Shown in pieces: positions 12,147 through 64,000 of a stretch of DNA of 64,000 nt (position 1 is its first letter; each line of letters opens with the position of its first letter). The stretch comes from Blasia pusilla (lineage: Eukaryota), in the NCBI GenBank assembly GCA_050084515.1, contig CM114271.1, forward strand, positions 26,536,001 to 26,600,000, read 5' to 3'. A program made the translations under genes and the position numbers. The notes beneath the pieces are model-generated. The model had not been told where the DNA came from. It worked only from the letters and a program-made list of their open reading frames with translations, and searched no databases.

Positions 12147-12837
12147 CTCACCCCTCTTTTAGAGGTTGATGCCCTCATCAACGTAAACTTTTATTATGTG
12201 AAGTCTCCTGGGCAGCCTACCCCTTGACATTGAATTGCGTTCTGGTGGCTAACCCGCAATTCCTCTTAGTCTCTAGTTGTCGCTTTGCCCCACTTAGAAT
12301 TATTAGCCTCTCATCTTCGATAAGCCTGGACTAGTTCCAAGGAACTAACCTATCAAATAAGCTAACTAAGTGTGCAACCTTAGACTCTTTCGACTCATTA
12401 TTGTAAACATCACACCTGTTTACCTGGTCCACAAATCGTACTACTATTGGGTCGCTCTCGTATTCGACTTAGGCGCGTCACTAAGTTTACTTATGTGGCC
12501 ACAAGTAAGATCACCCCAAGCCCCAAGATAGACTTCATTTGCCCCGCCGACGCTAGGGCGAGCCCGAGTGTAATCCAACACAAGGTCCTGTTCTAGGTGC
12601 TTATCCACATACGAGCTCTCACCTCAAATACTCCTTGTCTGTCCTCTTGTCGTACATTCTAAGTCTATGATGAACGACTCATAGCCATGCACTCCCACAT
12701 ACAAATTGCAATCAACACTGGTATCGAATCTCCAAATCCATACACTCCTTTATTGCAACACTAGCATATTCTAGTTACAACGGCCTTCGGCCCAAGATTC
12801 CACTGATTACAAGTCATGTCTCTAGCTTCTCCTCATA

Positions 12838-17400: not shown

Positions 17401-17472
17401 AAATTTCCCAAGCGTCTGGCTAATCCCACGACCCCAAGTTCTCGCTCACCAAGGATAAGCTCTCATACCACT

Positions 17473-18472
17473 TGTCGCGCTCCTACTCTCCTTGAACGTC
17501 AATCTTTAGTGTTGCGGAAGCGTGCGTTCAGTAGGTCACGAACTCATCGCCGATGTGCACCCAAACACGCACGCTTGTTAGTCGGGTTTGGCCAACCGGC
17601 GTTCCAACCCACCGAGTCCTCAACTCGACGTCTCATCAAGCTCAACCTTCCTTAGTTCCTAGCTCCCAACACATGGCAAGTCCTTCAAGACTTGGAACAG
17701 ACTTCCTGGTTAGTCCAAGGATTTGAAACGGCACTTGCACGCCTAGCGATCCCAACTGTTCAACGGTCCTCGTGTGAGTTCCGAACCGAGACCCAAGTAA
17801 TTGAGTCGCGGCGTGAAATCCAAGAGGGATGTCTAAAATCGCCTCAATGGACTTGGTGCAGGTTTTCCAACCCAACGCCCAAATTCGCGTTCCGTTCCAT
17901 GCCCTTGAGCCGCCCCGCGGCGCCCCAAAGGGTTTGGGTTCCAAGCACTCTCGGAGACCTTCCCCCTTACTAGTACTTCTGGGGTTCTCCAATAACCCCT
18001 CCCCTTTGGGAAAAGAGGTTCGGGCCCTTCATTGTGGCCCTCAACCCGACTCTACTTACAGTCGTTTTTGGGTCGTATCTCGGCCTCTGCTTATGCGTTT
18101 CTAGCGATCTTTGGTGCGTTTGGACCGGCTCTCCATAAGCTTTCCAACGCATACTTATTTGCTCCAAACGCATCTTGGCGCTAAAAGTTATGGCCATAAA
18201 TACAGTCGGAAACTCTCAAACGCAAGTGGCGTTCCAAATCCGGATCTTTCCTTTGGCAACCCACTTCCTAGACTCGACTTCTTTCAAGTCTCATTCCGCG
18301 TTTGGTCCAGGTTTCTGAGTCGCGACCATCACATCTGAAACGCGACTTCTCGCTCGCGTCTCGTCTCTTGTCTCCTCTTTGAGACAACTCCAACGTGCAA
18401 ACCATCTTAGCGTGAGCCCGCTAATGTTCCGATGTTCCGCTTGGCACTTGTTTGGTCATGAGGGTTGCGACA
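17473..18472 (-). repeat. 5' LTR of chromovirus
   Basis: tgtcgcg...tgcgaca, adjacent to the PBS. Confidence 0.95.
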
Positions 18473-29264: not shown

Positions 29265-31299
29265 AACTATGACGTAGATACAAATCTATGGCAGAACTAT
29301 GGCGATCCCTATTGCCCTACCCAAGGCTCCACCCTAAGTAAAAGTGTAAGCAAAGCCGTGCAAGCCACACAACATAAACTTGTCAGTTACTAGGTGCTAA
29401 AGAAACAATGAAACTCAAGAAGGTGCGGCGGATCTGAAAAGTCATTGAACACCAAGACTCGGCGAAAAATACTGTCAGCTAATGCAATGTGTTATCAAAC
29501 ACACCTGATTCCCTAATCCCGGCTCGGATTCCCTCAGGTCCCTAATCCCGACTCGGATTCATGTACAAAGTGGCAACACGGATTGGAGAGTTTTGAAACC
29601 AGAGCTGCAGATACTCAAGCAGTTACGAAGAGTGGAGGTTTAAGGGCAAGAGGGCGACTTAAAAGTTCAAACACGGCAGCTGGTTAATGGAGCTTCAAAT
29701 TTCTACCATTCGGGGTCCCTGAGTGTGGAGGTCAAGCGCAGCCGAGACTCGACAAGACAAGGAGAGTCACAAACGACGGCTCGAGTCAAGACTGGACAAG
29801 AGAAAAAAGAGAAGGGCTAGACGAGTGCGAAACCGAAGTCTAGAAAAAGAGCTCATACCGGGATGAAAGCAGCAGCAGCTCAGAATCGGGCTCGATGAGA
29901 GCAAACCAGCAGCATCGACCACAAGAGAATCGGGTGGAGTCGGGCTTGGACAAGTCACGAAATCAGCTCAAGAGTTGAGAGTCGCTTTGGACGAGAGCAG
30001 CTCGACAGCGCGCCGAAGACAGTCGGGCCTGCACGGCAATAGCTCAGCACATGAGCGGCAGTGCAGTACACAACAAAGAGTGGGGCCTCGACCAAAAAAA
30101 ACATAGCAGGAACAGCCGGTGCTAGAGTCCTGCCACTCGGGCCTGAACGAAGGAATGATCGAGCAGCAGCGCGTTAAGGGTCAAGCAGCCACACCTACGA
30201 ACGAGCAGTAGCGCAAGAAACGGAAGATCGAGTAGCTGCAAGAAAATACCAAGGAGCGAGCAACACCACAAAGACACCAACGAGCGAGCAGCGAGGAAAA
30301 CAACGAGCGAGCAGCAACGAGCAACGCGAAGCAACAAACGAGAGAGCGCGAAAAAACCAACTAGCGAGGACGAGTGAGGTCACGAACTCAACGAAGGAGG
30401 GAGGCATGCAAATGACAGCCCCTCGGATCCCCCTCCACACTACCCCTCGGCCCCTCGGAGTCTCGTCCAGACTCCAGCCCGAGTCGGGTCCTGTGAATCT
30501 TGCCAACTTCCAATGGCAAGTGCCCACGCAACTACGCCCTAGGGCCCCTCCCCCTAGTGGCCTCACCCGACTCCCGAACTGGCGGCTTGCCCTAAGATGG
30601 AGGGCCTTGATCAAATCCTATATTTTTTAGTTCGCCGGCAGCCGGCAACTGATGCGGCAGCCAACCGGAATGACCTTTCTGGCCAGCAGCCACAAACTGG
30701 ACGGCATGTCGCCGGAACAACGCATTTCCGTCACATATTCCCTGAAACTCAGCAGAAAACCGCCCTATCCCTTTCCGGCCAGCAGGTTTTTGGGATGCCT
30801 CCAACCCCTGTCGGAATTGCATCCGGAATGTTCAAACACAACCCGGAATTCTCTAAATTTTCCCGTCTAGGTCAACACGTAGCCCCGGTTCTGCCCATTC
30901 ATTGTTTGGAACCAACGTTCCCACTCACGTGCTTTCAGAAAATAAGAAAATTTGTCTTCGCTCGCAAAGAGCCTTACATTTCTTTATTGTATCTAGATCC
31001 TTTTCAGGTTGACACCCGTCTTTTGAAGGCTCTTCACTTTTGTCGACACCTGTCCACTTAACGTGGTGTTAAGGACTAATAAGGACATGTTATATGAAGG
31101 AAACTCCAAACAATACGAAAGTGTGTAGCACTAGACACCATAAGTGTGCAAGAGAGGAAAATATCTTTTAGTAGTGGACCCTTTAGCCATGTTTGAAAAT
31201 TTTAAATAATTACCCGATTAAGGATTTAATAAAATTCCAAAAATTTCTCAGTTTCGAATCATGTCGAGAGGTGTTACCTTACGAAGGATATAACCACGA

Positions 31300-39692: not shown

Positions 39693-40724
39693 TGTCGTGC
39701 GCCTACTCTCCTTGAATGTTAATCTTGTTTGTTGCGGAAGCGTGCGTTCAGTAGGTCACGATCTCAATGCTCATCTGCATCCAAACACACACTTCGGTTA
39801 GTCGGGTCTTGGATCAATCAGCGGGATTACTTTCCGAGTTCTCGTCTCGGACTCTCTCTTCAAGCTCAACCTTCCTAGTTTCACGGTTTCCAACACGGGC
39901 AAGTCTCGAAAGACTTGGGACAGACTTTCTGGTCGGTTCAGGAACCTGAAACGGCGTTTCGCGCCTAGCGGTTCCAACTGCCCGATGAACATCCAATGAG
40001 TTCCTCACCAAGACTCGCACGAAGTGAATCTCGGGTTGGAATCCAAGTGTGGCGTACAAAGTCCACTCCCTTGGATCAGGTTTGGGTTTCGGGTTTCCGC
40101 GCCAAACTCCCGTTCCATCCTGTGCCTCTGAAACGCCGTTTGGCGCCCAAAGTGGGGTTTCGTTTCCCGAGACATCTCATAGAGGTTACTCCCCTTACTA
40201 GTACTTCTGGGGATCTCCGGGGCCCCCTACATTTAGGGAAAGACACCCGGGCCTCTCAAATTGGACCTCCACCCGATTGCTCTCTGAATCGTTTTCGGCC
40301 AATATCTCAGCCTGTACTTATGCGTTTGCTAAGATCTTTGGTGCGTTGGAAGTGTCTCAAGATCAGCTTTCCAACGCGCCCTTACTTGTCCCGAACGCAT
40401 CTTGGAGCTCAACGTTATGGTCCTAAATACAGTCAGATTCTCCCAAACGCTAGTCGTGTTCCAAACTGGTTCTCACCTCTTTGGCAACCAACCTCCAAGA
40501 CTCAACTCATCTCAAGTCTCGGCTTGCGTTTGGTCTAGGTTTCCTGGTCGCGACCACTAACGCATGAAACGCACAACTCTGTTCCGCGTTTCGTCTCTTA
40601 GACTTTTCCAAGAGACTCTTCCAAACGCCTCTCCAAAGCGCAAACCTCGCGGCGTGAGTTCCTTTGAGTTATGATGTTTCGCTTGGCGCGTATTTGGTGT
40701 TGTTTGGTTATGAGGGTCGCGACA
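39693..40724 (-). mobile_element. Solo LTR related to the chromovirus LTRs
   Basis: tgtcgtg...cgcgaca with exact TSD CGGGC; clearly homologous to, but diverged from, 11145-12146. Confidence 0.93.
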
Positions 40725-42170
40725 CGGGCATTCCCTTAGGATAGCAACCAGAGGGTTGTCCGGTATGATGTACGAACACCTTCGTGATGCTTTCCCTCCG
40801 AGGACTCTGCTAGCGGCTTTTTCGAGTTGCTTCAGGTTGCCTCTCACCTGCCTCAGGGGAGAGTACCAACAGCAGTAGCCTAGGTATTCGGGGCGGGGTG
40901 ACTTTTAGCGTTGTCGAAGGAGGGTGGAGGGATCCGTCCGATCGCCATAGGTGAGGGTCTCTTGCAATTGGTGAGTCTCACTATCGCTTTGCAATTTTGT
41001 GAGGCTTTCCAGTCACATCTGAGTCCGCACTAGTTCGGAGTTGCCACGCCAACCGGTTGTGAGGCGGTAGCCTTAGGTTTTAGGGCTTGTTTGGATATAC
41101 ATCTTGAGTGGGTGGTTCTCCAAGTTGATGTGGAGAACGCCTTCAACTCAGTGTCTCGGGAAACTATCTTCACAGAGCTGAGAGACACATGAGGTCCTAT
41201 TGCGAGTCTGATTCCCTTCATGCAGGCTTTTTATGGGGACCCCTCGGCCCTCTATTTTCACCACGGTAGGTTCGAGGAGGAGGTCACGGTTTTGGAGTCT
41301 GCTATCAGGACTTGTCAGGGTGATCCCTTGAGACAAGAAGTACTAAAATATCTCCAATAAAGTAAGATCCTATCTCTCTCTACACCATCTCACACCATAG
41401 CTCTCAAAGGTGTGCACTCTCTCTCATGTCAAACCAAAACCACTCTCCTAATGAGAGGTTTTGGTTACACTCACAAGGTAAGGGACCATATCTCCGCCGC
41501 CTCATGCCAAGAGGTTTAACAAAGAGAGAATAAGCTCTCCAGCTCTCTCTACTTGAGGTATACCCCTCCCCTCTCCCAAGTTTTCTCCATGGTAACCTAT
41601 TCTCCCAAGTCACCTCCTTGGCTCTTGACCTGATGTAGGAGGTCAAGGGTCATTTACCAAAAATAGAAAGTCGATCATATACTCAAAATGGTACTTATCT
41701 AAAATAGTAGGTTGCTCAATATGGCTCCAAATGAGCCGAAACGAAGGGGAAACTTGCTCTCTCAGGTTTCTCGGGGCCTCAGCAGGTCATCCTCGACCTA
41801 TTGAGCAGGTCCTCCACTATTCACAAAGGCGCTCTACTAGATCTCACCGATCTATCCTAAAAGACGTGATAGTTGTCCTACACATCGCTACACAACATAT
41901 ATCACTGTCACCAAACACACACACAAACACGCACGATCCCATGGATCCAAACAAAGAGACAAGAAGTACTAAAATATCTCCAATCTCCCCCCTAGTTGGT
42001 GGTTAGGTCCCTCTAACTCCAGACAACCATCTATCCCTACCTACCATGACTTACATCTCTAGGACGCTAAGAGCAGAAAAGTCGGGTGCTCATGTGGCCC
42101 CATCGTTAGTCGCCTTCTTGTCATCCATGTCACAGAAAAAGTCAGAATCAAAACCTACCTAGTATCTCCT

Positions 42171-42315
42171 CTATGTATATCTGGGACACATCCATCGTCT
42201 TTGAGGAACCCTAGTGAGAGGTGGCATCACACATGCCATATGCCAACCTCTTGAACATCCATCACACACTAGCATCGTGGCCGAACCACGAGCATAACCA
42301 CACAACATACAACGC
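42171..42315 (-). pseudogene. PHD finger at the integrase C-terminus (too short for the ORF track)
   Basis: Manual translation: CMLCGYARGSATMLVCDGCSRGWHMACVMPPLTRVPQRRWMCPRYT*, a C4HC3 pattern with the last Cys now Tyr. Confidence 0.9.
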
Positions 42316-42374
42316 AAGCCTGCAGGAACTACTTCTGAGGTCGGATCTACTGTACCATCAATGTTAGGAAGGTG

Positions 42375-45200
42375 TCATGACGCACGATTACGCACATGAT
42401 CCTTCCAGACCATACCATCGCGTCCCTCTAGCAAGAGAACACCGGATGGTAAAATGTCACGCACTCTCAGGATAGTGCGCCCTCCAGTCACATCCAACGT
42501 CTTCGGTGCCGTCTGCTGCAAGTAGACATAATCTCCTTGTTGGTCGATAACCACCACCCCGAATAGTCGCATACCTCAACGTATCCCGATGTTGCGCAAT
42601 CTCCAAATTCTTGAACGCCATGGGCATCACTCTCCGAAACAACTCAACCCTCTGAGAACATGCTCGCATCCATACATCTGGGTCATCAAGTTCTAGCACC
42701 TCACCACATCTCAACAAATGGCCGCAGGTAATTCTGGCTCTCGGCCATAAAGTAGCAAGTACGGTGAAAAAGACGCTAAGGATGCATGCCTGCTGAATAT
42801 GTATCCCATCGCCAACCATAGCAACTAGAGGTTCCAATCTCCTAGGTGACCTCTCTGTAATCCATACTTGCATAAACCCCTCTTCACCGTCTACACAAGT
42901 CTCTCCGCTCATCCATCCGCCTTGGGATGATCTCGCGAAGTCGTGCGGTGGTCGATCAACGCCTGATCACACAAGGCCTCGAACTCACCGTGAAACTCGG
43001 TACCCTGGTCTGTCAACACCTCAGCCGGTGTGCCATAATGACTCAACACTCTGTCAAGGAAGGCATAAGCTACTCCCTCACTCGCTTTGTCAGGCAATGC
43101 AACCAACTCGATCCACTTCGAGAAGTACTCGACCATCACCAACACATAACGACTGTGACACTCCGTCAAAGGCAAAGGTCCTGCAAAATCCAAACTCCAT
43201 CTATACCCTAAGCCCATGATCGGTAATGGATGCAACTGTGGAGTCGGAGCATTGAATGATGCTCGGACCTGATCATACACCATGCACCTGGCAACAAACT
43301 TCTGAACGTCAGTCTACATGACTCGCCACCAATACTGAATCTGGAGCAAGCTATATGTCCGCTTCACCCCAAAGTGACCCAACTCCTCGTGGGCATGCTG
43401 CACTAGTCGTGCTTTCTGCAAAGGATGCAGCACTACGCGTACTCTACCATCCTCCCAAACCCTCGAAACATGTGTCCCCTCCCAACAAAATTGTCTGGCC
43501 AGCTCTGGGATCCGATCCCGCTCTCTAGCACCCATAGTGCTCGCAACGCTACTAGTACAAAGATCCTCCAAGACTACTCCATCATCATGAATATCTCAGC
43601 CATGTGTGGTCTCCTCACTAGCCTCAGGATCCAAGGACTCTCCACTAGACCTCGGCATCAAAGTCTCTATACTCTTGCTCTCCATAGCCAACATGCCTAA
43701 ATTGGCTGACGCGTGCCCTCTTGGCACTGACTCCTCATCACTCTCTCCGTGCCATCCAGCTCCAGTCGCATCTCGCTGACTTGGGCATAGGTTATGACTC
43801 AACGCATTTGCATCCTAGTTGAGCGTCCCCGGTTTATGTACCACCTGAAAATCATACTCCTACAACAACAGAGCCCATCTTGCAAGCTTCCCAATAAGCT
43901 TGTCGAACTCCATCAACCACTTCAGTGGTTGATGATCAGTGATGATGGTAAAGGGGTTGCCAAATAAGTAACACCTGAAATGCGCGACAGCCCACACTGT
44001 AGTCAAGCACTCATCCTCATACGAGCTGTACTTCGCCTCTTCAACGTTGTTCGAGCGGCTAGCGTAAGCCACCACAAACTCTCTACCCTCATCATCATAC
44101 TGGGTGAGCACCGCTCCAAGCCCCAACATGCTCTAATCTATGTGCAACTGGAAAGGACGCCCCCTAATCGGTCTCCTCAAGATGGGCGCAGACGTCAACC
44201 TATCCTTGAGCAATTGAAATGCTCGCTCTTGCTCATCCCCCCACTGCCACTCGTGATCCACCTTGGTTAGCAAGGTCAGCGGCTTTGCAATCAAACTAAA
44301 TCCCTTGACGTACCGCCGATAGAAGTTCTCCAATCCCATGAATGTGCAAACACGGCTCACATCTGTAGGACGTGGAATGCATGAGATAGCCTCTACCTTC
44401 GTCTGCTAAACACCAAGGCCCCCTGGGTATATTATATGACCAAAGTACTCAATCTTGTCGTAGAAGAACTTGCACTTGCTTGGATGTAGCTTGAGCCCAT
44501 GTAATTGCAATTGTCGAAACACCTCCTCTAGATGTCGCTCATGCTCCTCAACCGTGGCGCTAAAGACTGCGATATCATCAATATATTACCTAGAAAAATC
44601 CAGACTAGCCAAGATTCTATCCATGACCCTCTGAAACTCAGCAGGGGCGTTCTTTAACCCAAATGGTAAGAATCGCCATTGATACAAACAATCCTCTCCG
44701 TGAGGATCGATGCCCCAAAATGCCGTTTTCTGCCTGTCCTCCAATCTGATAGGCAGCTAATGGTATCTGGCTCGCAAATCCAATGAATTGAAGACCTTTG
44801 CGTGACCAATCGCATCAAAGATCTCCTCAGGGGTGGGCATGGCATACCTATCCGACTTTGTCAACCGATTGATAGGTCGGTAATCCCCACACATCCGCCT
44901 ATGTGTCCAGTCACCATGTACATCCTTCTTGGCGGGCATGACAGTGGCAAATGCATACTCCCCATGCGACATCTCCATTAGTCTTGCTCCAACCAAGTCA
45001 TGGCTCCTACTTTGAATCAAAGCCCTCTCCATATCACTATACCTGTAGGATCGTCGGAAGATCGGCGTATCACTCGATAACTCAATGCGGATCCCTGGTC
45101 CCTTCAGCGTACCCAAATTCTCCATGCTAAACGCAAAGCAGCTCCTATAACTCTTGAGGAACTGATGTATTCTCCCGTCCTGTCAACTTAGGGCCTATAT
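42375..45200 (-). pseudogene. RT-RNaseH-integrase of the DNMT-Gypsy
   Basis: ORF fragments with the Ty3/Gypsy order RT>RH>INT, broken by stops. Confidence 0.92.
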
Positions 45201-45559
45201 CTGGCTCCCAAGTCTCCATCGTGAGTACGATAGGACTCTCCGGCGCGGATATCGGTGGTTGCTATGGTGCAACCCCATCTTGAACAACGATACTCGACCG
45301 CTCTCCTAAAGCCAAGTGCAAACTCTGATCTCCTCCACATGCAGTGCCCAGAACCACGCTCGATGTTGTGGCTATCATCTCCTGGCGTACCTGCAAAACA
45401 TCCCAAGAAGTCCAAAGGTGTCTCTCCCGATCTCCCTTGGTGTGTCGATCTCCTCGGGTCTTGCCCCTAGATACTGCCCCCACCGTCTCGGTAGGCATGG
45501 GGCTCACCAACGCAACCGTTGCGATCTATCGCGATCTCATCCGATGCTGCTCAGCCACT

Positions 45560-46495
45560 CCCAAGCTGAAGATCCATGTCAAGCGGTTCAGGTCCATCGC
45601 TTGACCCAAGATATGGCGTCGTGATGCCTCTGATACTGACGGAACTGCCGTCACTCTTGTGGGAAATCCCATCGCCCGCTCTCTCTTGTCGGCATTGGGC
45701 TCCACCAACCTCTGAACCTGGTCATCCCAAACCAAGCCAGGACCGGCCTCCTTGTATGCATAGGAAGCGGGAAAACTCACAAACATGGGAAAGGCTGCCC
45801 GTGGCCTGCCTACCCTGTTGACCACAGTCAACAGTGGTCGATCATCGTGCCTCATTGCCTATGAGCGACGATCTGGATCCAGAATGGAATCCACTATTAA
45901 ATGGGAGGGGCGCTCCACTCTCACATACGCCCTCCGTAACACCGCATGGGGCACCAAGTTGGTCCATCATTGACGCGGGCGATGGGCTCTAGAACCTACA
46001 CTCGCCGCATCCAAGAACAATGTTGGGCCGATCCATGCAAGCACTTGATGAGCACTCATCACCACCCGTGACCGGGAGTCTCCTAAGATCGACACATTCT
46101 CCAAAATGTAGGTTGGAGAATGAGACTGGTGATCCTGCAAGTGCCGTAAGACCCTCAAAATCTCCCAAAACAACCTATACCGAGTGTCAGCCAACCCGCT
46201 GCCTCGTCCTGCACTCGATTGGCCTTGACATGGCCAACCGGCAATGACCAAATCAATGATGCCTAACTGCTCTAAGTCCTGTGCCCCCAACAATGAAATA
46301 TTCTCGGTAGGGAACTCTGGTACCCCTATACTGCGGACGCACACAATAAGTCGGGAAAATGTAGGCGTAACTACGCCACATATCGTAGGGAGATGCGCCT
46401 CGCAACATCATCACTCTCCACATACAGGTACTGCTGCACTCACACTCTTGCCTACAAAACAACAGCTAATCGCTCCAAAAGATCTAACACTCAAA
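45560..46495 (-). pseudogene. Cytosine-5 DNA methyltransferase domain within pol
   Basis: Motif I VLDLF(G)AIS (frameshifted), II YLYVESD, IV DLVIAGWPCQG, VI YILENV, VIII AHRPR, IX/X ERAMGFP...RRHILGQAM, in canonical order. Confidence 0.93.
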
Positions 46496-46719
46496 TACCC
46501 TCCTCCGGAATACACCACACAATGGATGTGGTATCCAAGGCTGTCATTGTAGCACTCCCTGCTACCTCGGGTTCCTCAGACCCATCACGCTACGGTGCAA
46601 ACGCCTCGCTCCACTCGGTCTACACGTGCTCATCTGCCAATCGTCCAAACTCCTCAATCGAGCCCCACAACGCCACCTCTCCTCCACATAATCATGCGGC
46701 TACCATAACACTCCTCTCC

Positions 46720-47951
46720 TGTGATACCCATAATTTTGTACTTTTGAAGAAACATATATTTTTATTCAAAGAAGACTTTTATATACATTATGATTTTGAT
46801 TATTATATATTATTATGGGAAGGAATGAATAAGATTAAAGTGAATCACAAAGCTCCAAGGACAAGGTAGAGAGATAGAAAATCAAGGATTTGCCTAAGAG
46901 GAGAGGAGACTAAAATAACGAAGTCTCAAAACCCAGCAAGAAGCTTCAGAAGCTCAACGAAGCTCTGTCTATGAAGTGCTTTGCTCTATAACCAAGCATA
47001 ACGAAGCACGAAGAACAAAGCACCTGGAACAAGAACCAAGAATGGAGTGCTTCGTCTTCAGATCAGGAGAAAGAGCTTCGTACTTAAGCGAAGCAAAAGA
47101 GGTCCAGAATTAGCAGCAAAGCGAAGCTAAGACTGACAGTGATTTCAAGCGAGACATAGTTAGAATAGTTAGAATAAGAAGAGACGCAACCCTTTGTATA
47201 AAATTGGTAGTTATGACAATTTTGTTCTACGGATTCATAGGGATCATAGGAAAGAAAAGAGCACCATAGATCCAAGTAGTTAGAAAAGTTGAAGAGCCAC
47301 CAGCTTCATCAAAACCGCTTCGAATCTTTGGATCACTCCTCCTTGAGAGAGTATTTAAGAAGCAATGAAAGTAGCTATCATCATCATTCTCTTATAAAGT
47401 CCTTATGCTGTAAGAATGGTCCGAGTAAGGGAGTAGTACCCTCTCGAGCTTGCATACACTTTGAAGCTTTTTCATTCTTGATGGAGTAGTAAAGCAATAA
47501 TTCCTTCATTCTGATGTGCGATGCTTATGTCTGAGTATTCTTATTGGGTCTGCAGAGTCAGGAGTGAATCAGGCGAACATTTCTCATCAATGAAATAATC
47601 AACATAGAGTTGTAGGAAATCTGTTTGACACAGAGTAGCCTGCCGAGACGGATTGAGTTCCGAAAGTAGGAGAAGCCAACTTTCATGTTGAGGTCTCTGT
47701 GAGGTTTCTTGAGATCGAGAGGAAATCTACCTGAGCGTGTTGTGAACCCCACTAGAGAGAATTGAGGAAAGAAACTTTGGTACTAAGAAAGATCCAAAGA
47801 TATTGATAAGACATTGAATATAAATCATACACATTTAAATACAACTATTACAATAGAATTGTAATTTTGAACTCTCTTTTCATCAAACGATGATCCTCTT
47901 GGGGATCGAACTTATTAAACAACTGTAAAATAGAAACTCTTGTACATTACA
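46720..47951. mobile_element. Solo LTR of an unrelated family nested between PR and DNMT
   Basis: tgtgataccc...cattaca with TSD tctcc/tttcc (one mismatch). Removing it restores the host frame (DISMERSVMVAA). Confidence 0.85.
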
Positions 47952-48093
47952 TTTCCATAGAAATGTCAAGAACGGGAGTATCCTCTGCATGGACATGTCC
48001 CTCAATCAAATCACTAGGCCAGGTGATGACACTACTAAATGCTGCTAAGGTCGCCACCTCTCCTGGTCGTTGCTCAATCACTGCACCTGTGAA

Positions 48094-50660
48094 TCAAACG
48101 GGTAATGAGCTAAGGCGCCCATCACCAGACTGCCATCCTGGTCTGTAGGACGCTGACTCCTCCCAATAATCTAGGTATAACACTGCTCCACCAACCAAGA
48201 CGTCATAGGACTCTACATCAATCACTATCGCCTTGGCTTGCACCACGGACTCATCTGTAGGATGTCCCGGGCAAATCCTCACCATGACCTCCTGTCGGGT
48301 GATATACTGTGTGGTACTCGCTCCACCTAAGGATGTATGTATCCGGAATGGAAAACGCTCCACATCAGCTCTCATCAAGCCCAATCCTCTGAATGACGCT
48401 TTTCCCAACATCAAGGGTTGTGCTCCTGAATCCAACAAGACGTGATGCGGACTAAAAGCTCTACCTCCGGGACTCACCAACTGGAAGACCGCTCCTTGAT
48501 TATCCAGCAACACAACACCAAGAGAAGCCATGGCACACTCTATCGCGGGTCTAGCAGGCATCTCCGCCATCCTAGCAACCGCAGCCTGCCATGAATCTGA
48601 CGTGGACGGCCCGAGCACCTGCTCCAAGGGCAAGTCCATCATCTCCTCTGCAATCACCTCTGAACGTGATGCAAGAACTCTAAATCCGCATTCACATAAT
48701 GAAGCGGCCAGCCAAAAAGCCTCGGCGGACGTACCCCCCAACGTCATAACATCAGAAGCAAAAAAAAAAGAGTGCGGTACATAATGGTGGCGGCTCCCAA
48801 CAACGTGCTTGACACATGCCCCTCGTAAGCATCAACAATAGGAGTCGTCGTACTCGCTTCTCCCATCGCCCTCCGTGGCTGCACACCAACAACATCACCA
48901 ACTCTTTAGGAACTCTGATCAGGACCCATCGAAGGGGTCCTCATCGCCTCGGACAACGTGAAAGACTGAGGAAGCCTAGTATGTTTCCTGGATTCCCCTC
49001 GTTGTGGATCCAACTCTACGGCTGCTCCACGCATCACAATTGCGGCTGTCTCCATCTGGGCAACCCCGCACATCCAACCAAGATCCTCTTAATCTCTGGC
49101 TGCTCCATATGATGTCGATGCCATCGGTCCGGCATCGGGTAACCTCAATGCCATAACGGCAATCTGCTCTTGTAGCTGCTATATCTGAGCAGCCATCCCA
49201 ACCTCACGTTCGACGTTTCCCTCGGTGACGTCGAGGTGGTGGTACTCTACCTCCTCCACAGCAGCTCCACCACCGTGTCGGGCAACTCCAGCTCCTCGTC
49301 CCCCAATGGGACCACCTGGTGCACCATCTCTAGGCCCACCCCGACCGGCTACTCACTCTGGTACCCTCTCTGGCCCTCGGTCCGGACGTAACTCAAGATA
49401 TTAACTGAAACACTTGGCATGTCTTTGACCATACCTTTGACAATAGTCACACTGATAACCTCTTGGTGCAGCACCACCTCCTCCTCCATGCTGAGGCACA
49501 CCTCCATGACCCTCACGAGTGCAATTGCGCTGATGATGGGCTCCACCACATGACCAACAAGTAATAGTAGGCGGCTGATGCTGAGCCACATATGAAGGCG
49601 CAGGTCTCTGTCACACGGCCCCCCGGTATCCTCCCTGAGCTCGTGGTGCCACAACCGACCTATCTCGGAGTCCACGTTGCTGCACAAGTACTACAAGAAA
49701 TCGTGACAGCTCTCGCCCAGAACCCATGGTGGCTACGCTCTCCTCCTCCATGTTGCGCTCAATGTTCTCAACGGTCCTAAAAACATCTCTCAACGTAGGG
49801 GAGGTGTTCATAAGAAGCACCCCCTCCCGCACCCGTGTCCGCACGGGCCGGTCGAGCATCGCATACCATGATTGGATAGCGTGAGCCTCTATCACCCCTG
49901 AGTGACGTTGATCAACCGGCGCAAGCGAATGTAAGCCTCAAGAAAACTCTCACCCGGGCGCCCGAAGTCGTGGATGCTCCGCAACTTCTCCGTCTGTATC
50001 CCCTGGTAGCTTGCCCTCAACTCAGCAAAGAACTCAACCACAGGGTTAAACCTAAGACGAATCCGACTAGACGGTACAACTGCTCCCGTGCGAGTGACCC
50101 CTCCTAAAACGTCACTAGTGGAAGAGGAAGTAGCCTCTCCTGCCTCCTCCTCCTCATGTGGGAACGGCTCCATCCATGACACATAATGTGGGTCATAGTA
50201 GAGCCTCCACGCCTCGATCTCACATGCATATCTTTGAGAGAAATCATGGTAATCGTCCATGGGCGCCCCCTCTAAATGATGGAACATACCGTTCCATCCT
50301 GTAAACAAGTTGAACTCTCTAGAGTTCTTAGCCCGCTGGGAGTCGCACCAACTCCTAAACTCTACTATGAAATCGTGTAACTCAATCGTGCCTACTGCAC
50401 TTGAAAACCTACGCGATCCTCTACCCTGATCGTCCATCTCATACGCCCAACTGGTAGGACCACTCACAATGTGTGGCGATGTGCTCACAAACTCCTCTAC
50501 ACGCTCCATCTTGCTTGAAGATGACACAGAAGGAGATCGAGGTGGTCTCTCACGTGGAGACCCTCGAAACCTCGCACCACTCCGGGTAAACCCTCCGGAG
50601 CTACTCTTAGGTCCACTACCTCACCTCTCAAAATCCTGAAAGAACGCCTTGATGGCCCTC
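48094..50660 (-). pseudogene. gag and aspartic protease of the DNMT-Gypsy
   Basis: CCHC knuckle CWSCGGAHHQRNC and DSG protease motif. Confidence 0.85.
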
Positions 50661-53600
50661 GTGCCCCTCTCACATGATCACTCTCAACCTCATGAGTAAT
50701 CCCTTAATCACTCATCCCAAACATGCAGCACTCGATCTACTCTCTCCCTCCCCGAGACGTATAACGTGCGGCAACAAGTGGCGTGGTGCGGCAAATCGAC
50801 CATGCTATCATCTCATCGATAACCTACCCTCAACTCCGGACATCCCACACAAGTCTATGTCCCCTAAACCATATACATAAATGATGTTCTCAGCATCCAC
50901 ACAACCCAATATCCCCAAATCAACTACCCAAATCCCATAATCCCTCACGCGTGCAGGGTAAAGGACCATAATGGGTAACGTGAACACATTTCGATGTCGC
51001 TCCTCAGAAACTGCAAATCTCAACCCCAACTCGGTCGTGGAGACAACTCCTCCAATCAGCAAGTCATACTCCTCCCATACTGACGCTGCTCAAAACTCCT
51101 AGATAGACAGTGCGATTCCAACGGAACGGTGCGGCGTTGCAGGCGCCACGGAACGGCTACGAACGGCACGGCCCTCGATGGTGGGATGCGGCACTCGGCG
51201 GCATACCCTCCTCAATCAACAATAAACCCACACTCTGCTCCACAATGACGGTGCGGCTCCGCGATCGAGACACTACGATGCGGCCATGAGCGGCATGGCA
51301 CGGCAATCGCCGGCGCGTTGCGGCTATAGGCGTCATGGCATGGTACTTGATCGTCATCAAGCGGCTACCAATCACAACATAGCATCATGAAATCAAAACT
51401 CAAACACCATAACCGGAGGTCATCTGCCATCACTGGTTGACAACGAAACTTCGATGACGGTGGCGGCCAAAACAAAGTACGTGGTGGCGATGCAAGTCAG
51501 AGAATCAACGTACTTCATGGAAGTCCCTCCACTCCGTTATGGTGGCAATGGCAACCAAAGGATGAACAACTTCCGAATGCGGCTCTGAGCAACGTTGGGC
51601 AACAACAACGGCCGACGATGGCCGGTGGACGGTGGATCGTTTGTGGTGATGATTGACCGTTGACGATGACAATGGACCGTTGATGGTGACGGTTGACCAT
51701 TGACCATTGACCGGTGACTATGACGGTGACGGGGACGGCCGCCACCGGCATGGCGGCTGGTTTAGGGTTTGAACAATTTAACCCTAAAAATCGACTAGCA
51801 ATATCAGTTTTGCAAGATTGACCATAACTTCTTACTTGCAACTCCAAATTGTGTGCCGTTTCATGTACAACATGCATAGCTTCACGGTCTACGATGGCGT
51901 CAAAAAATATTTGGAATTGGATATTCCAAAAAAAACTGACAAGGATTGTTGTAAAGCCCAATGTCTCTTTCTCCTACACAAAATTTGGCAGCGCTTCCCC
52001 GCTGATTTCTCCCAACCAAAATGTAAAACCTGTAAAAATAAAAATCAACAAGCTACATGGTGCTCCCAAGAGTACCGGCATGGGGCAAACTGCCCCCATA
52101 ATCAATCCCTATCATAAATTGGGCAGCGCTTCCGCACGCCACTCTTCCACACGAAAAATCGGCAAATGCAAAGAACAATCAAAGCAACCCTTGCTCCGGC
52201 AAGCACTCCCATGAGCCGCTGAATGGGAAACACAGTCCCCAACCTGAAAAAACAGCGAGCTCCCCCATGAAGCTCTCTCATTCTCTCATTCTCTCTTTGT
52301 AAAGTAAGATCCAATCTTTCTCTACACCATCTCACACCATAGCTCTCAAAGATGTGCATTCTCTCTCATGTCAAACCAAACCCACTCTCCTAATGAGAGG
52401 TTTGGGTTACACTCACAAGGCAAGGGACCATAGCTCCGCCGCATAATGCAAAGAGGTTCAACAAAGAGAGAAGAATGAGCTCTCAAGCTCTTTCTCCTTG
52501 AGGTATATCCCTCCCCCCTCCCAAGCTCTCTCCATAGTAATCTATTCTCCCAAGTCACCTCCTTGGCTCTTAACCTGATATAGGAGGTCAAGGGCCACTT
52601 ACCAAAAATAGAAAGTCGATCATATACTCAAAATGGTACTTACCTAAAATAGTAGGTTGCTCAATATGGCTCCAAATGAGCCGAAACGAAGGGGAAACTT
52701 GCTCTCTCAGGTTTTCCGCGGCCTCAACAGGTCATCCTCAACCTACTCAGCGTGTCCTCCACTATTCACAAAGGCGCTCTACTAGATCTCACCGATCTAT
52801 CCTAAAAGACGTAACACGGCGGCTCTTACTGAGGATCTTCTCCACGTCGACGATCTCACAAGGATTGGTGACCCTCAAGTAGCTTATAGCATCCTCTCGT
52901 CATGTTTTGCTCGTAAATCTGGTGATCTGTGTAGAGCCGTGTGGGCGTCTAGCCACATTTCTTCCTTGTATAGATCCTTTGATAGAAAGATCAGGCAAGC
53001 GTTTGGGGATCTTCTAGGACCCGGCTCCTTAGAGTGCCCCACGTAGGAGTTAGCTCGTAGACAAGCTTCTTGGCCGATTGCCTTTGGTGGAGTAGGTCTT
53101 ATAGCGACTGAGTTAGTGGTGTCTTCGGCTTTTTTAGGGAGTTGGGCCACCGTAGCACCCCTCCTTTGCTCCCGATTTTTGGTTAGGGATAGACCGCTAC
53201 TTTTACAATATGTTTCCCAGGTTGAGGATGTCTTTTCCCACTTTAGTTTTCACTCATAGCTTGTAGAGACTCCCTCCTTGTTGAGGCTAGAGCAATTCTT
53301 CCCACTTTCTCTTCCCTAATTACCTCCGAACAGTCTGGGCTCCAATCTTCTTTGATGGAAGCCCACTTTGATGCATTATTCACATCTACTATGTTCGGGC
53401 ATGTATTCGCTCTTGCTCCGGAAAGAGGGCAGGCTCATGGGTGGGGGCTCGTCCCCTCATCCCCGCTTTCCGCATCGCACCACTTACCTACACTACAGCG
53501 ATGCGGTTCCGACTGGGCCTGCCCCAACCATCGGTGGTTGGTTCGACAGATTACAAGTGTCATCGAGGTCTAGATCCACTTGGACACTGTGCATTTGGCA

Positions 53601-59273: not shown

Positions 59274-62200
59274 ATGTCACGCAATGTTGCACGAATTCGG
59301 AACTTCCAAGAGAGCGATATAATGAAGTTAAGACTACGAGCAAGTATCAACCAACTAACTGGACGTCATACTATTGGTTCTATGACAGAAACATGCCCTT
59401 CATGTTATGCCTTACATTGGAAGTGTGAAAAGGTAAAGAGTACAAGGTATCGAAACTCGCCTTTTGGAATAAGTTGTAATCATGGAAAAGTACAACTCCC
59501 TTTCTTAAGGTGTTGTCCTCCATTCTTGAAATCGTTGATTTTGGTGTTGGAGCTGAAAGTCTTCATTTTCTTTCACACACTCGAGCTTATAATTGTGCTC
59601 TTCAGTTAACATCTAGTGGAGCTCGAGTCAAGGAGCAAGTTGCTGGCACCGGACACTTTCGTATTCAAGGTGGAATTTATCACAGCATCGGCCCATTGCA
59701 TCCCGATGAGGGGAGTAATCCCCAATTTGCTCAACTTTACATCTACGATACTGAAAATGAATTGGAAAATCGAGGAAGAGTTATGTCTAATGATCTCCGA
59801 CCTGGGATCTTAAGAGGGTTGCAAGATATGTTACATGAACATAATCCCTATGTGAGGATATTTCAACACATTGCAAATGAGGCAAGTGGATCTAATCTTC
59901 GTATCATTCTAAAGGCGCATGATCGAGGAATGGATTCCAAACGTTATAGCTTGCCAACTGCATCCGAGGTTGCGGCAATCTTACCTGGTGATGGTAGTGG
60001 ACATGTGAACCCACGTGATATTATTGTCCAATTATATGGTGGAGGACTTCGTCGTATTTCAGATCTAAATGAAGCATATGTTCCATTACATTTTGTTCTA
60101 TTATTTCTCTATGGTGAAGCAGGATGGCATCCATGAATACCTCTTGGGAGATTTGAGGAAATCACGAGTGCCAATATTCCTACTACATTGGATGGAGACA
60201 TGGAAGGATCTGATGGCTGTATTGAGGAAGAAAGAATTGATGATGAGATTCTTCATGAAGGAAGGAGAAAAATAGTTACAATGCTACAATTTGCCTCTTT
60301 TCGACTTCAAAACCGTGGCGGTGGCGATGACGATAATCGTTTGCTTTGATTTGGGCGTCTTACTCAAGAGTACATGGTTGATTTGTATGCTACAATAGAG
60401 ATGCAACGACTATCTTGGGTTTGATTAAATCAAAAGAGTTGCGAGCTGAATTATATCAAGGTCTAAAGGATATCCAATATCAAAGTGACGGAGATGGTGC
60501 AAGGTTTAGGAGGCGTATTGTATTGCCTTCTTCTTTTAGTGGAGGCCTACGCCATATGCATCAACTTCATCAAGATTCAGTGGCCATTGTGAGGCACCAT
60601 GGGAAACCAGATTACTTTCTAACAATGACGTGCAATCCTAAATAGGAGGAGATCACTTCAGCACTATTACCTGGTCAACAACCTACCAATAGACCATATT
60701 TGATTATGCGAGTTTTTGAGAAAAAAAAAAGGAGTTATTAAGGCTTATTCTCGAGAAGCACATATTGGGAAGGGTTTTTGGTTGCATTCATGTGGTTGAA
60801 TTCCATAAAAGAGGTCTACCACATGTACATATTTTGATTATTCTTCATCATGAGGATAAGCCACGCTCAACATCTGATTATGATGATATAATATCTTCTG
60901 AGATTCCTAATCCAAACACTCATCCCAGACTTCATTCTATTGTGGCTAATTGCATGGTTCATGGCCCATGTGGACAACTTAATCCAAATGCTCCATGCAT
61001 GGATAAGGAAATCAAGAAGTGTACCAAAGGTTATCCTAAGCCTTTTGCAAGCATAACTACGGAGAGTGAGGATGGATATCCGATTTATCGAAGGCATGTA
61101 ATCAAACTTTGCATCTTTTGGATTTTCAAAAATTCCCTAACTTCTGATTTTTTATAAGGTGAATTTCTATTAATGTTTTCCTTCATTCTTATGATACAGG
61201 TTGGATAATGGAATAAAAGTAATGAAGCGCGATCAAAGTTGGACAATCGTTGGGTCGTTCCTTACAATCCTTTGTTATGTACTCTCTTTGATTGTCATAT
61301 CAATTTGGAGATCACGAATACCATTTCATTTGTGAAATATTTATACAAATATGTATATAAGGGATCCGATGCGATATCATTTAAGGTTTCAAATAAGGCA
61401 AGCACTGAAACGACAAGGGAGGTAATCGATGAAACTTCACATTATCTTGATGCAAGATAATCACTCTTTTGTGAATTATTTTTCCATTCCTTCAATATGT
61501 CTACATTCGAGAACATATCACACTTTACTAATTTCTTTTCATCATTTTTGTGTATCATGTATATAGATACGTTTCTTCCTCTGAGGCATGTTGGAGGTGG
61601 TTCAAGTTTAGCTTACATGCGGAAAATCCAAGTATTATAAGGTTGGCAGTTCATCTACCCGAGTTACAAAGTATTTTCTTCAACGATCACGACAATGTTG
61701 AGGAGATACTACAAAGGAATAGGGAGAGAACTCTTACACAATGGTTTACAACTAATCAATTAGATTTGGAGGCTCGAAAATATCTATACATCGACTTTCC
61801 TTCCTATTATCGTTGGAACAAAAAAAAAAGATTCGTAGAATTCAAAGGAGAAATGGTTATGGTCATCCCATTGATCGCTTATATCTTACTCACCCAGGTA
61901 AATATGTTTGTACCCATAATGTACTTACAAATTACGTAAATTTTCAAGCGTCCTTTTCATTATTTTCATGTTTGGTATATTAAGCGATTACATTCAAGTT
62001 TTGATAGGTGAAGGAGAATGACATTGGTTGCGGTTGCTGCTTCATCATGTTCAAGGCGTAACTACGTATGAATACTTGAGAACTGTGCAAGGAGTACTAT
62101 ATTCAACATTTAAGGAGGCTGCTATTCTAATGGGGCTTCTTGAGGATGATAGGGAAGTATTCTCATGCTTTCAAGAAGCATTAGAAATCCGCACAGGTCG

Positions 62201-64000
62201 TACGCTTCGCCAACTCTTTGCAATTATTCTCGCTTACAACACCCTTACTCGACCTGCTCAACTATGGAGTCAATTTTTGATCCCACTCATAGAGGATATC
62301 TTATATGAACGACGCGTGGTAATTCCTATTCCTATTTTTATGATAATAATTCTTATTTTTGGCTTTTTCTTTTGGACTTACTCCCGTATCGTTTTCTATA
62401 TGCAGAAAACAGGGATTCCTGATCTTGCTCGAGATGCTTTAATTATTAACACATCATTATTGGATATCCACTACCATTTGCAAGCTCAAGGCAAACGATT
62501 ATCCGATATCCTTGATACGCCTCAAGCAGATTTCCAAGCTTCATCTTCATATTCGTATTTAGAAGCAGAAGAGCTCATGTATGATCGAGATGACTTATAT
62601 GAGCAAGCTAGGTTAGGAGAGGAAAATTTGAATGATGGACAAAGGTTGATTTGGGATTCTATACAAAATAAACTTGATAGCATTATTGCTGGTGATATTT
62701 CTTCAGGTTCAAAATTGTTCTTCATTGACGGGCCTGGTGGAACAAAAAAAACCTTTTTATATAATCTTCTTCTTGCAAGTGTATGAGGTGCTAGAGGCAA
62801 AGCTTTAGTTTTCGCTTCTTTGGGAATAGATGCTTTGTTGTTAAATGGAGGACGCACTGCGCACTCACGCTTCAAGATTCCAATTAATATAGATGAAAAC
62901 TCCACTTGCAAGTAAGTATTAAACCATTTTGTGACTTTGTAACTCTTTTAATATTGTTAAGATAACACTTATCCAACATAGTAATATCTTTTGGTATATT
63001 TTTTGTAGTTTACCTGTTAATAGCGAAATTGCACGCTTGATTCAAAGGGTCTGGCTTATCATATGGGATGAGGCACCGATGACTCATCGCCATGCATTTG
63101 AGGCTGTAAAGCGATCCTTTCAAGATATTATGGGAGTGGTATCGGAAGACTTGAGGAATGTTCGGTTTGGTGGCAAATTAGTAATCTTTGGTGGGGATTT
63201 TCGCCAAGTGTTACCTGTTGTTCGTCATGGAGACCGTCCACAAATTATTCAAGCCACATTAACGAGGTCATGTTTATGGTCTCATGTGAGGGTAATGAAT
63301 CTTACAACGAATTATGAGATGTCAAAATTTGGAGGTGAACATGCGTGTACAACAAAAAACTTTTGCAAATTGGTTACTGGAGGTTGGAGAGGGACGTGTG
63401 CCTTATGAATATCACTTGGGAGAGGATTTTATACAATTTCCAAATGATATGGTGACCAAGAGTAAGAATATAAGTGATCTTATTGACATCATCTATGGAA
63501 ATGATTATGAAAAGTTTTGTAACATCACATTTTTAAGAGATACAACAATTCTTACACCAAAAAATCGAGATGTTGATGATATCAATGCAGAAGTCATGTC
63601 TCGATTCTATGGAGAGGTAATATTGGTTGTCAAATAATTTTCATGTCATTTTCTTAGCAAATACTTGAATTATATCATGCATCAAAACTAAATTCATCTT
63701 CTAAGATATGTTTGTTCTATGCAGGAACGTACTTAGCTTAGTGTTGATTCTGTTCCAGATGAGGGAATGAGTTATATCTATCCGACAGAATTCCTAAATA
63801 CGTGCTTACCGTCAGGTTTACCATCGCATCGTTTAAGCTTGAAAATTGATGCGTCTATCATGCTTTTACGAAACTTGAATGGTTCAAAGGGACAAGCGAA
63901 TGGAACTCGATTGATGATCCGTGGATTCATGCAACATGTCATTGATGCTGAAATTATCACATGGAAGAACACTGGAGATCGAGTCTTTATTCCACGAATC
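59274..64000 (+). pseudogene. Helitron Rep/PIF1-like helicase with introns, stops and frameshifts
   Basis: Zinc finger CPSC..HW..CNHGKV; Rep motifs GKPDYFLTMTCNP, VEFHKRGLPHVHIL (HUH), YLYKY; helicase motifs GPGGT(K)KT, IIWDEAPM, GDFRQVLP, ILTPKN, LRNL..NGTRL. Confidence 0.95.

Follow-up and report, generated by a model that had tools for sequence, protein, structure and literature searches.

The stretch analysed here comprises 64,000 nucleotides of contig CM114271.1 (assembly GCA_050084515.1, forward-strand positions 26,536,001 to 26,600,000) and is referred to below as the window. Positions 41330–52816 of its minus strand are occupied by a single Ty3/Gypsy-type retrotransposon with the order gag, protease (PR), Dnmt3-like C5 cytosine methyltransferase (DNMT), reverse transcriptase (RT), RNase H (RH), integrase (IN) and PHD finger, as established from stop-to-stop open reading frames (ORFs), Pfam matches and tblastn alignments to relatives (P-numbers denote proteins, L-numbers metagenome loci fetched as relatives). 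The element lies in a bryophyte-like genome and is a decayed copy, diverged by ~8%, of the streptophyte lineage of Ty3/Gypsy type called 'Gypsy-DNMT3'; we are highly confident of its identity and lineage, and only slightly less so when the anatomy shown below is made part of the claim.

Coding parts of the window element

All coding parts lie on the minus strand. The gag-like region (48921–50440) is colinear in tblastn with residues 9–490 of the Marchantia protein P0163, with one frameshift and five stops in the second part, and contains a zinc knuckle of the CCHC type, CWSCGGAHHQRNC (49559–49521); the region has no Pfam match in the window. The aspartic protease region (47952–48831, ORF 48831–48094) is colinear with residues 529–806 of P0163 and carries LLDSGA at 48438–48421; it lacks a Pfam match in the window copy, and the homologous region of L018, P0056, P0175 and P0177 matches Asp_protease_2. 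There follows a nested secondary insertion of 1232 bp (46720–47951, no strand assigned), which resembles a solo long terminal repeat (LTR) with TG...CA ends, a GGAAA/GGAGA flanking duplication and 37% GC, and which splits the tblastn colinearity exactly between residues 806 and 818 of P0163. Next come the DNMT domain (45529–46679) and a short ORF1 tail, which ends at an in-frame TAG (45262–45264) followed by CAA CCA. All remaining domains share a single frame of 998 codons (45173–42180): the RT and RH region (43854–45173; RVT_1 at 44897–44430 and RNase H at 44243–43854, both matched by Pfam on the X-read-through protein P0288), 57% identical to the intact ORF2 of L018; the integrase (42924–43415) with its H2C2 zinc finger (43415–43263) and rve DDE core (43205–42924), likewise from Pfam; and, at the C-terminus of the integrase ORF, a PHD finger (42180–42311; PF00628, E=5.7e-9), which is also found at residues 990–1034 of L018 ORF2. 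RVT_1, RNase H, Integrase_H2C2 and rve thus share strand and frame as a Gypsy domain set. A tyrosine recombinase was sought as well, and no Phage_integrase match was found in the window, in L018 or in the relatives scanned, the integrase being of the rve type only. The preliminary description of this DNA had named DNA_methylase, RVT_1, rve and PHD as the families to look for, and Pfam matched all four.

The same description had placed a complete C5 methyltransferase motif set at ~45560–46495, on the same strand between protease and RT, and our coordinates and the PF00145 match agree with that placement. The Pfam C-5 DNA methylase family matches the ORF at 45967–46407 (E=1.8e-12, 47.8 bits against a cut-off of 22) and the X-read-through frame at 45529–46575 (E=9.7e-12), and tblastn aligns the domain to P0163, P0159 and L001. 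Motifs I (46490–46455), II (46430–46410), IV (AGWPCQG, 46242–46222), VI (ENV, 46101–46093), VIII (45993–45955, containing a stop), IX (45687–45664) and X (45609–45586) occur in unrearranged order. The claim of completeness holds in so far as every motif could be located, but motif I is ruined ('VLDLLERLAVVL' compared with 'LLDLFGGISTGL' in P0163), and motifs I and II lie in another frame than IV–X because of a frameshift near 46303; the domain has 9 in-frame stops. When the family profile was compared with the PDB, the best matches were DNMT3A, DNMT3B and DNMT3C chains (E~1e-13), followed by M.HaeIII (4e-6) and the plant DRM structure 4onj (7e-5); a protein atlas offered generic DNMT clusters and nothing more specific. 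Since DNMT3A/B/C rank first and the motif order is unrearranged, the methylase module is, as far as sequence comparison goes, Dnmt3-like. Its setting is that of a multicopy retroelement, unlike a single-copy cellular gene with introns, and in ORF1 of L018, P0056 and P0163 Pfam detected neither PWWP nor ADD, nor the plant DNMT3 domain or another reader module.

The window copy is dead, as the preliminary description had recognised from its stops, frameshifts and nested solo LTR. Beyond the conserved boundary TAG there are 32 in-frame stops (5 in gag/CCHC, 1 in PR, 7 in the N-terminal and 2 in the C-terminal part of DNMT, 1 in the ORF1 tail and 16 in ORF2). The reading frame shifts in gag, within DNMT (near 46303), near 45170 and in the C-terminal region of the integrase, and the insertion at 46720–47951 comes on top of this.

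A family of methylase-carrying elements

The phmmer search of 1.84 billion cluster representatives with the X-read-through DNMT query yielded 1782 matches (E<=1e-3; 115 with E<=1e-30), and lengths of 1000–3400 aa were frequent among them. The named relatives include 17 cluster representatives from Marchantia polymorpha (some of which may be one locus in two assemblies), as well as proteins from Calypogeia fissa, Sphagnum fallax, S. troendelagicum, Klebsormidium nitens (P0056, KFL_013780020) and four Closterium strains, while a second architecture, described below, is named from Scenedesmus, Cymbomonas and Monoraphidium. No vascular plant appears among the named matches listed, which is weak evidence, as only part of the database carries names. 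One consequence concerns annotation: at least 17 Marchantia cluster representatives that resemble DNMT genes are transposon ORFs, and one of them bears the UniProt name 'DNA (cytosine-5...'. In metagenomes, 599 stretches were matched by pattern, and tblastn verified at least 303 of them as coding for proteins related to the query ORF1. The window element has ~69% nucleotide identity to the nearest fetched loci.

The position of the methylase is the same throughout these relatives. In tblastn the window aligns colinearly to Marchantia P0163 over gag, PR and DNMT, to Marchantia P0166 over PR, DNMT, RT and RNase H, and to the metagenome protein P0013 through the integrase; the order PR-DNMT-RT recurs in Closterium P0272 and in the intact loci L018 and L028. 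The earlier view that the methylase belongs to the coding plan and is not an adjacent gene is borne out by this colinearity. A DNMT match is present in 80/80 of the best metagenome loci fetched, 5 of which have a stop-free DNMT domain. Across 14 ORF1 proteins with ~34% identity, motifs I, IV, VI, IX and X show no or almost no variation, the strings concerned being FxG..TG, GWPCQG, ENV, ERERAMGF and GQAxD. Three unsaturated pairs of intact relatives gave DNMT dN/dS values of 0.143 (L018/L029, dS 0.25), 0.120 and 0.102, and ORF2 gave 0.06; the remaining pairs were saturated. Values of 0.10–0.14 across copies, a comparison already proposed in the preliminary description, indicate that DNMT evolves under purifying selection in intact relatives. 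A departure from the conserved pattern was seen in a divergent subfamily (L032:10751–11695), in which GWECQG replaces GWPCQG in motif IV and ENT replaces ENV in motif VI, so that the invariant Pro of the catalytic Pro-Cys dipeptide is substituted.

The architecture census covered 205 proteins with a near-complete domain, after 67 of the 272 with any match had been dropped as partial. The window's architecture, PR-DNMT(-RT...), here group A, is represented by 50 proteins, group B with the order RT-RH-DNMT-IN(-PHD) by 109, and the other 46 are DNMT-only fragments; a PHD finger after the integrase is present in both architectures. DNMT trees were computed with FastTree (213 rows) and by an IQ-TREE quick search (121 rows, distance-thinned, named rows kept), and an RT-RH tree from 83 rows with one outgroup. 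Group B is a single clade (support 96 in both DNMT trees, where it includes no group A row, and 97 in the RT-RH tree), and the group A lineages (Klebsormidium-type; Closterium with P0013; L032-type; L018-type with bryophytes) form a polytomy at the base of the DNMT trees. The window falls into a 6-row clade with Calypogeia, S. troendelagicum with L001, and Marchantia in the DNMT tree (SH-aLRT 100), and groups with Marchantia and an L001-type locus in the RT-RH tree (support 99), so that it sits with bryophytes in both of the trees that the preliminary description had called for. Because the DNMT and RT-RH trees agree, DNMT has descended together with the RT backbone, and repeated capture is not seen within the radiation. 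Group B (P0052, P0116, P0195 and ~100 others) is the larger architecture and is abundant in metagenomes; a group B-like protein, P0232, is assigned to a metagenome-assembled genome of a 'Spirochaetia bacterium' and probably represents eukaryotic contamination of the bin.

Transcription was followed in three RNA runs whose organism label is shared with the best DNA matches, counting reads of at least 88% identity. Each run has 4253–4368 reads on the element, most of them less than 95% identical and 5–7 at least 99% identical. First mates lie mostly on the plus strand throughout (10–20 fold or more in most bins), which on the usual stranded-library convention is sense, i.e. minus-strand, transcription of sister copies. 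The depth is 19–68 in the DNMT bins, similar to PR, and 0–6 in the nested insertion; 37, 13 and 40 reads of the three runs, and one DNA contig, connect 46716 directly with 47954. Since these reads skip 46720–47951, related copies without the nested insertion are transcribed. The window and the loci L018, L028, L001 and L012 also show CpG depletion (observed/expected 0.54–0.76) and, on the sense strand, a CpA excess (1.44–1.58) larger than the TpG excess (1.12–1.22), for which codon usage or strand-biased deamination of cDNA may be responsible; depletion and transition spectrum are compatible with the history of a methylated transposable element (TE), and are not diagnostic of it.

The observations made so far bear on the possibility that the methylase of the window is a one-off capture, i.e. 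a host DNMT3 gene inserted secondarily into this copy. All that speaks for it is that another nested insertion adjoins the domain. Against it, PR-DNMT-RT colinearity extends to four named genera at the protein level and to all of the best 80 loci, neither introns nor flanking duplications (the target-site duplication, TSD, of an independent insertion) surround the DNMT segment, the two trees are congruent, and the RNA of sister copies covers DNMT as deeply as PR. Relatives devoid of the methylase, or a segment with a TSD or introns of its own, had been named beforehand as grounds for giving up the idea of an integral methylase, and neither was encountered. We consider such a capture extremely improbable; given the colinearity, the 80/80 loci and the congruent trees, DNMT is, on comparative grounds, a fixed component of the element family.

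The host calls for more caution. The DNMT tree is rooted with a single, partly aligned host DNMT3 (P0275), which leaves its direction uncertain; the polytomy of the group A backbone deprives a sisterhood of bryophyte and Klebsormidium elements of tree support; the land-plant placement is read from relatives of the element itself, and transposons are capable of horizontal transfer; and the RNA represents transcription of copies that are 88–95% similar and says nothing on intactness or mobility. All four points weigh against the history that we favour. The contig might come from a charophyte, another alga or a contaminant, or the element might have been acquired horizontally, in which case it would have little bearing on land plants. 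The modest ~69% identity to the nearest fetched loci fits this, the moss and liverwort copies are surprisingly alike (L001 is 72% identical to Marchantia P0163 in DNMT), and the window offers no host marker: Pfam found TE-type domains only and no host gene in ten other ORFs, and the searches for Rfam families and ARAGORN tRNAs gave 0 hits each. Yet the nearest named relatives are all bryophytes, for DNMT and RT alike, the named charophyte copies (Klebsormidium, Closterium) belong to different clades, several TE families are densely nested in a way that suits a large plant genome, and the family is annotated in the Marchantia, Calypogeia and Sphagnum assemblies regardless of the window. A source outside land plants, or a horizontal acquisition, is improbable in our judgement, and we retain a bryophyte-like genome as the host.

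The remainder of the window contains an LTR element at 11144–18229, which is young, as its terminal repeats (11144–11903 and 17472–18229) are 99–100% identical, and which has a weak Gypsy RT match at 15323–14682; a diverged LTR copy of it (39693–40725) adjoins the DNMT element. ORFs with DUF4371 and a C17orf113-type zinc finger at 27373–29285 (minus strand) and 62022–62786 (plus strand) are transposase-like, and a PIF1-like helicase fragment is possibly derived from a Helitron.

Boundary stop, split repeats and priming

The preliminary description expected intact members of the family to have one PR-DNMT-RT frame, and this is not how the window's subfamily is built: DNMT is the end of ORF1, and ORF1 and ORF2 are in the same frame with one conserved stop between them. 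The boundary was scored where one tblastn segment crosses it in a single frame, as holds for 58 of the 81 sequences. Among copies of the window's subfamily, 23/24 have a stop at this codon (15 TAG, 8 TAA), the exception being L006 with TAC; the next two codons are CAA-CCC in 20 of the 23 and CAA-CCT, TAA-CCC or CAA-CCA (the window) in 1 each. All three L018-type copies read TAG-CAG-TTA or TAG-CAA-TCA, and L018 and L028 are open on both sides of the stop (1369 and 728 codons, then 1047 codons). Copies of the L048-type subfamily mostly encode Gln at this position (CAA or CAG in 26/31, with TAG in 4 and AAC in 1), and PR-DNMT-RT forms one frame in this subfamily, as it does in P0013. The type I read-through signal of plant viruses is described as UAG_CAR_YYA, with UAA and UGA also functional (PMC3542737); the TAG CAA CCA of the window fits it.

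A conserved stop that keeps the frame and is followed by CAR suggests programmed read-through, which we hold to be somewhat more likely than not. Several observations pull in the other direction: most copies of the window's subfamily have CAA-CCC, a perfect CAR-YYA being confined to the window and the three L018-type copies; 8 of the 23 stops are TAA; and a search for a conserved RNA structure 3' of the stop found none (consensus -3.1 kcal/mol). A second conserved stop, between PR and DNMT, was hinted at by L032 and was rejected, as it proved to be a mutated Trp codon (TGG in 53/63 copies).

Instead of LTRs the element has split direct repeats, in the layout A-coding-polypurine tract (PPT)-B-NN-A-B. 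Repeat A1 (52300–52816) forms the 5' end and starts with TGTTACG; A2 (41358–41871) starts with TATCACG, a mutated TGTCACG, and the two are 92% identical (52816–52300 compared with 41871–41358). Repeat B1 (41874–41983) ends in ...GGACA and is separated from A2 by the 2-nt spacer AC (41873–41872). At the end of the element, B2 (41330–41357) is cut to the first 28–29 nt of B and is 100% identical to 41956–41984. The PPT, AGGGGGGAGA (41984–41993), abuts B1 on its upstream side, so that it precedes B1 and not A2; a G-run directly 5' of B1 is present in six of the eight loci shown (L012, L032, L038, L047, L056, L063) and absent in L066 and L068. The expressed sister copies depart from the window at 41987, exactly at the PPT/B1 boundary, and the first 13 nt of their B block are those of L012. 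Because the reads diverge at this point, B blocks must vary among subfamilies whose coding sequences are over 88% identical.

The A pair is present in 14 of the 41 sequences that are 9 kb or longer (40 loci and the window), and a B pair flanks A2 in 9 of the 12 sequences with room after A2, the exceptions being L023, L054 and L075. Probes for A and B found contiguous B.A.B in 15 loci, 10 of which have an upstream A 4.7–8.8 kb away; in the relatives A starts with TGTCATG, B ends in ...GACA, and the B1/A2 joint reads ...CA-NN-TG.... A symmetric model was considered, with a 2-LTR circle that can open at one or the other of its internal CA-NN-TG joints, and was rejected: it predicts A.B.A...B equally often, and among the probed loci 0 arrangements of A.B.A stand against 10 of A...B.A.B. 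Exact 4-bp TSDs surround A1...B2 in 5 of 8 loci (CATA, GGTC, CCAA, TTTT and CCAC; the chance is estimated at ~1–2% per locus, given the candidate termini allowed). As these duplications flank A1...B2, the whole A...B-A-B is, by comparison of loci, the unit inserted by the DDE integrase. In the window itself the 3' end is truncated, which makes a TSD unreadable. Short forms of B2 are not all alike: in L066 (17354–17382), which has an intact TSD, the final 29 nt of B remain, and in the window the first 28–29 nt. A solo A-B unit of the window's subfamily lies at 10181–10810 on the minus strand, with A 90–91% identical and a full-length B of ~117 nt; it is the analogue of a solo LTR expected from recombination between A1 and A2. 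No clear TSD could be read around it, and its flanks share nothing longer than short words with the sequence flanking the truncated B2.

Neither the window nor the loci compared with it have a TGG-type primer-binding site (PBS), as used with tRNA primers, after A1. The 9–13 nt that directly follow A1 are instead complementary to a stretch 85–173 nt before the end of A. In the window this PBS-like sequence of 11 nt (52289–52299) is complementary to 52472–52462 inside A1, at offset 0, and is a candidate self-priming site (reached by 8/1000 shuffles). The complement is 12–13 nt long in L032, L047 and L066 (0/1000 shuffles) and 9 nt in L012 (23/1000); it is not significant in L038 and L056, and L063, L068 and L001 show nothing of the kind. 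Of the features of a canonical Ty3/Gypsy element, two full LTRs, a tRNA-type PBS and a PPT before the 3' LTR are therefore missing, and TG...CA termini with a short TSD (4 bp in relatives) are present.

Possible role of the methylase and relation to known systems

Plants defend themselves against transposons chiefly by DNA methylation, and a transposon family with a de novo methylase of its own inverts the usual roles. With a leaky boundary stop, most ribosomes would make Gag-PR-DNMT and a minority would read on, adding RT-RH-IN-PHD; the methylase would then be the C-terminal domain of an abundant product, at Gag-like abundance, and a large excess of it over RT and integrase is predicted. Since it would be made together with Gag, DNMT would probably be in the particle with the complementary DNA (cDNA) and may travel with the particle or the pre-integration complex. 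There it could methylate newly made cDNA of the element or the site of insertion, the probable context being CG by analogy with the SymbioDIRS-Dnmt3 elements of Symbiodinium. Reverse transcription would be self-primed in the manner of Tf1, and the PHD finger may direct integration toward particular chromatin, for which the chromodomains of chromoviruses provide an analogy.

Methylation of cDNA or insertion sites was proposed by de Mendoza et al. for DIRS elements (PMC5890265), and we put forward cDNA self-methylation as the selected function here by analogy, as a tentative suggestion that we would not yet call probable. It is weakened by the finding of the same authors that the K. nitens KnitGypsy-Dnmt3 domain produced no de novo methylation in yeast, a result they call inconclusive since human DNMT3B failed too in that assay (PMC5890265). 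The yeast result would also suit a methylase kept for another role, be it that of a catalytically silent, DNMT3L-like subunit that binds DNA or chromatin or regulates, or that of an RNA methylase, acting for example on genomic RNA in the particle. The DNMT shares its ORF with Gag and PR, beside nucleic-acid-packaging functions, and RNA methylation was raised for DNMTs borne by long interspersed elements (LINEs) in the 2018 paper (PMC5890265). The near-invariant catalytic Cys (PCQ), ENV and S-adenosylmethionine (SAM)-binding FxGxG at ~34% identity would, however, be unexpected in a dead subunit of the DNMT3L kind, the closest solved relatives DNMT3A/B/C are DNA enzymes, and the yeast negative is explicitly inconclusive; we regard this alternative as doubtful without being far-fetched.

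The enzyme might also act in trans on host chromatin, in the neighbourhood of insertions or on competing elements, together with the PHD finger linked to the integrase. The retention of this finger at the integrase C-terminus in both architectures and the excess of DNMT over RT and IN that a leaky stop would give are in keeping with such an action, but ORF1 products of LTR elements normally remain in cytoplasmic particles. K. nitens, moreover, carries such elements and yet has a land-plant-like methylome (PMC5890265). We think an action in trans unlikely.

Modification of the element's own cDNA, which we prefer to both, can be joined with the anatomy into a wider picture: an active bryophyte lineage descended from charophyte ancestors would package a methylase made by a leaky stop, methylate its own cDNA, and replicate by a route undescribed for any DDE-integrase element, comprising self-primed synthesis, split repeats whose internal ...CA-NN-TG... 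joint mirrors the element ends, and directional integration of the whole A...B-A-B with 4-bp duplications. We consider this wider picture fairly unlikely. If true, a land-plant transposon would be writing the host's main silencing mark onto itself. The family is multicopy in Marchantia, a tractable model, which makes the question experimentally accessible in land plants, and the combination of split repeats with the hallmarks of a DDE integrase is a testable puzzle of element replication.

Compared with host DNMT3 proteins (DNMT3A, DNMT3B, DNMT3C and P0275, which has PWWP and ADD), the family shares the motif order, including AHRxRxxWxNL of motif VIII, and differs in lacking PWWP, ADD or a plant DNMT3 domain and in the position of the methylase between a retroviral protease and RT; P0275 is ~28% identical to the family DNMT. 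The chlorophyte group B elements (Scenedesmus sp. 'pol' P0052, Cymbomonas P0116, metagenomes) have a DNMT of 35–42% identity, the same RT-RH-IN backbone and a C-terminal PHD finger, but their DNMT lies between RNase H and the integrase. No published description of this architecture was found in the literature searched; the published Cymbomonas EpiLTRs are unlike it in having DNMT at the 3' end of pol, sister to DNMT4.

SymbioDIRS-Dnmt3 resembles the window element in a Dnmt3-type DNMT inside Pol and in A-coding-B-A-B repeats, and is, according to the main text of PMC5890265, the only retrotransposon whose DNMT was shown to methylate CG de novo, in yeast. It differs by a DIRS RT and a tyrosine recombinase, where the elements described here have a DDE (rve) integrase and TSDs, and belongs to a different host kingdom, for which the authors see independent acquisition (PMC5890265). 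The self-priming Gypsy elements Tf1/Sushi and Tcn1 likewise have no tRNA-type PBS and have bases after the repeat that are complementary to the inside of the 5' repeat (PMC6317226), but they possess ordinary LTRs and a chromodomain; this comparison is one of anatomy and not of RT. The main text of Neumann et al. 2019 (PMC6317226) mentions no methyltransferase, PHD, Marchantia or Klebsormidium.

The closest known system is KnitGypsy-Dnmt3 from Klebsormidium, whose repeats are described as the 'same as that of a DIRS retrotransposon' with the layout 'A-coding region-B-A-B' and whose DNMT was judged Dnmt3-like by de Mendoza et al. 2018 (PMC5890265). The K. nitens protein P0056, a partial sequence of 1160 aa, has zf-CCHC at 297–313, the protease at 598–691 and DNMT from 833 (Pfam); the family DNMT profile recognises it with E=1.9e-69. 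Because P0056 has the CCHC-PR-DNMT order and the A-coding-B-A-B repeats are shared, the window element is, judged by these likenesses, a member of the KnitGypsy-Dnmt3 lineage, the host range of which is thereby extended to land plants. The idea of a land-plant lineage thus stands as regards occurrence (Marchantia, Calypogeia, two Sphagnum) and falls as regards a separate invention. The previously documented hosts of transposon-borne methylases were one charophyte alga and dinoflagellates; in the literature searched, the name 'Gypsy-DNMT3' was found solely in the 2018 paper and a preprint of 2026 citing 'streptophytes (Gypsy-DNMT3)', and no report from bryophytes was found, in accordance with the earlier remark that such elements were not known as a characterised land-plant family. 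Bryophyte copies may be listed in the supplements of de Mendoza 2018, which would tell against newness. Both sets of elements combine Gypsy domains and an rve integrase with an unrearranged Dnmt3-like DNMT in the polyprotein, A-coding-B-A-B repeats and purifying selection (Ka/Ks <0.2 there, PMC5890265; 0.10–0.14 here). They differ in the host, a bryophyte-type land plant in the case of the window, and in the DNMT, which is ~37% identical to that of P0056; a leaky-stop boundary, TG...CA ends, 4-bp TSDs, the PPT position and a self-priming complement are undescribed for KnitGypsy-Dnmt3 in the main text of PMC5890265. What the present analysis adds to that system are the bryophyte hosts (Marchantia, Calypogeia and two Sphagnum species) and the anatomy of boundary, ends, TSD and priming.

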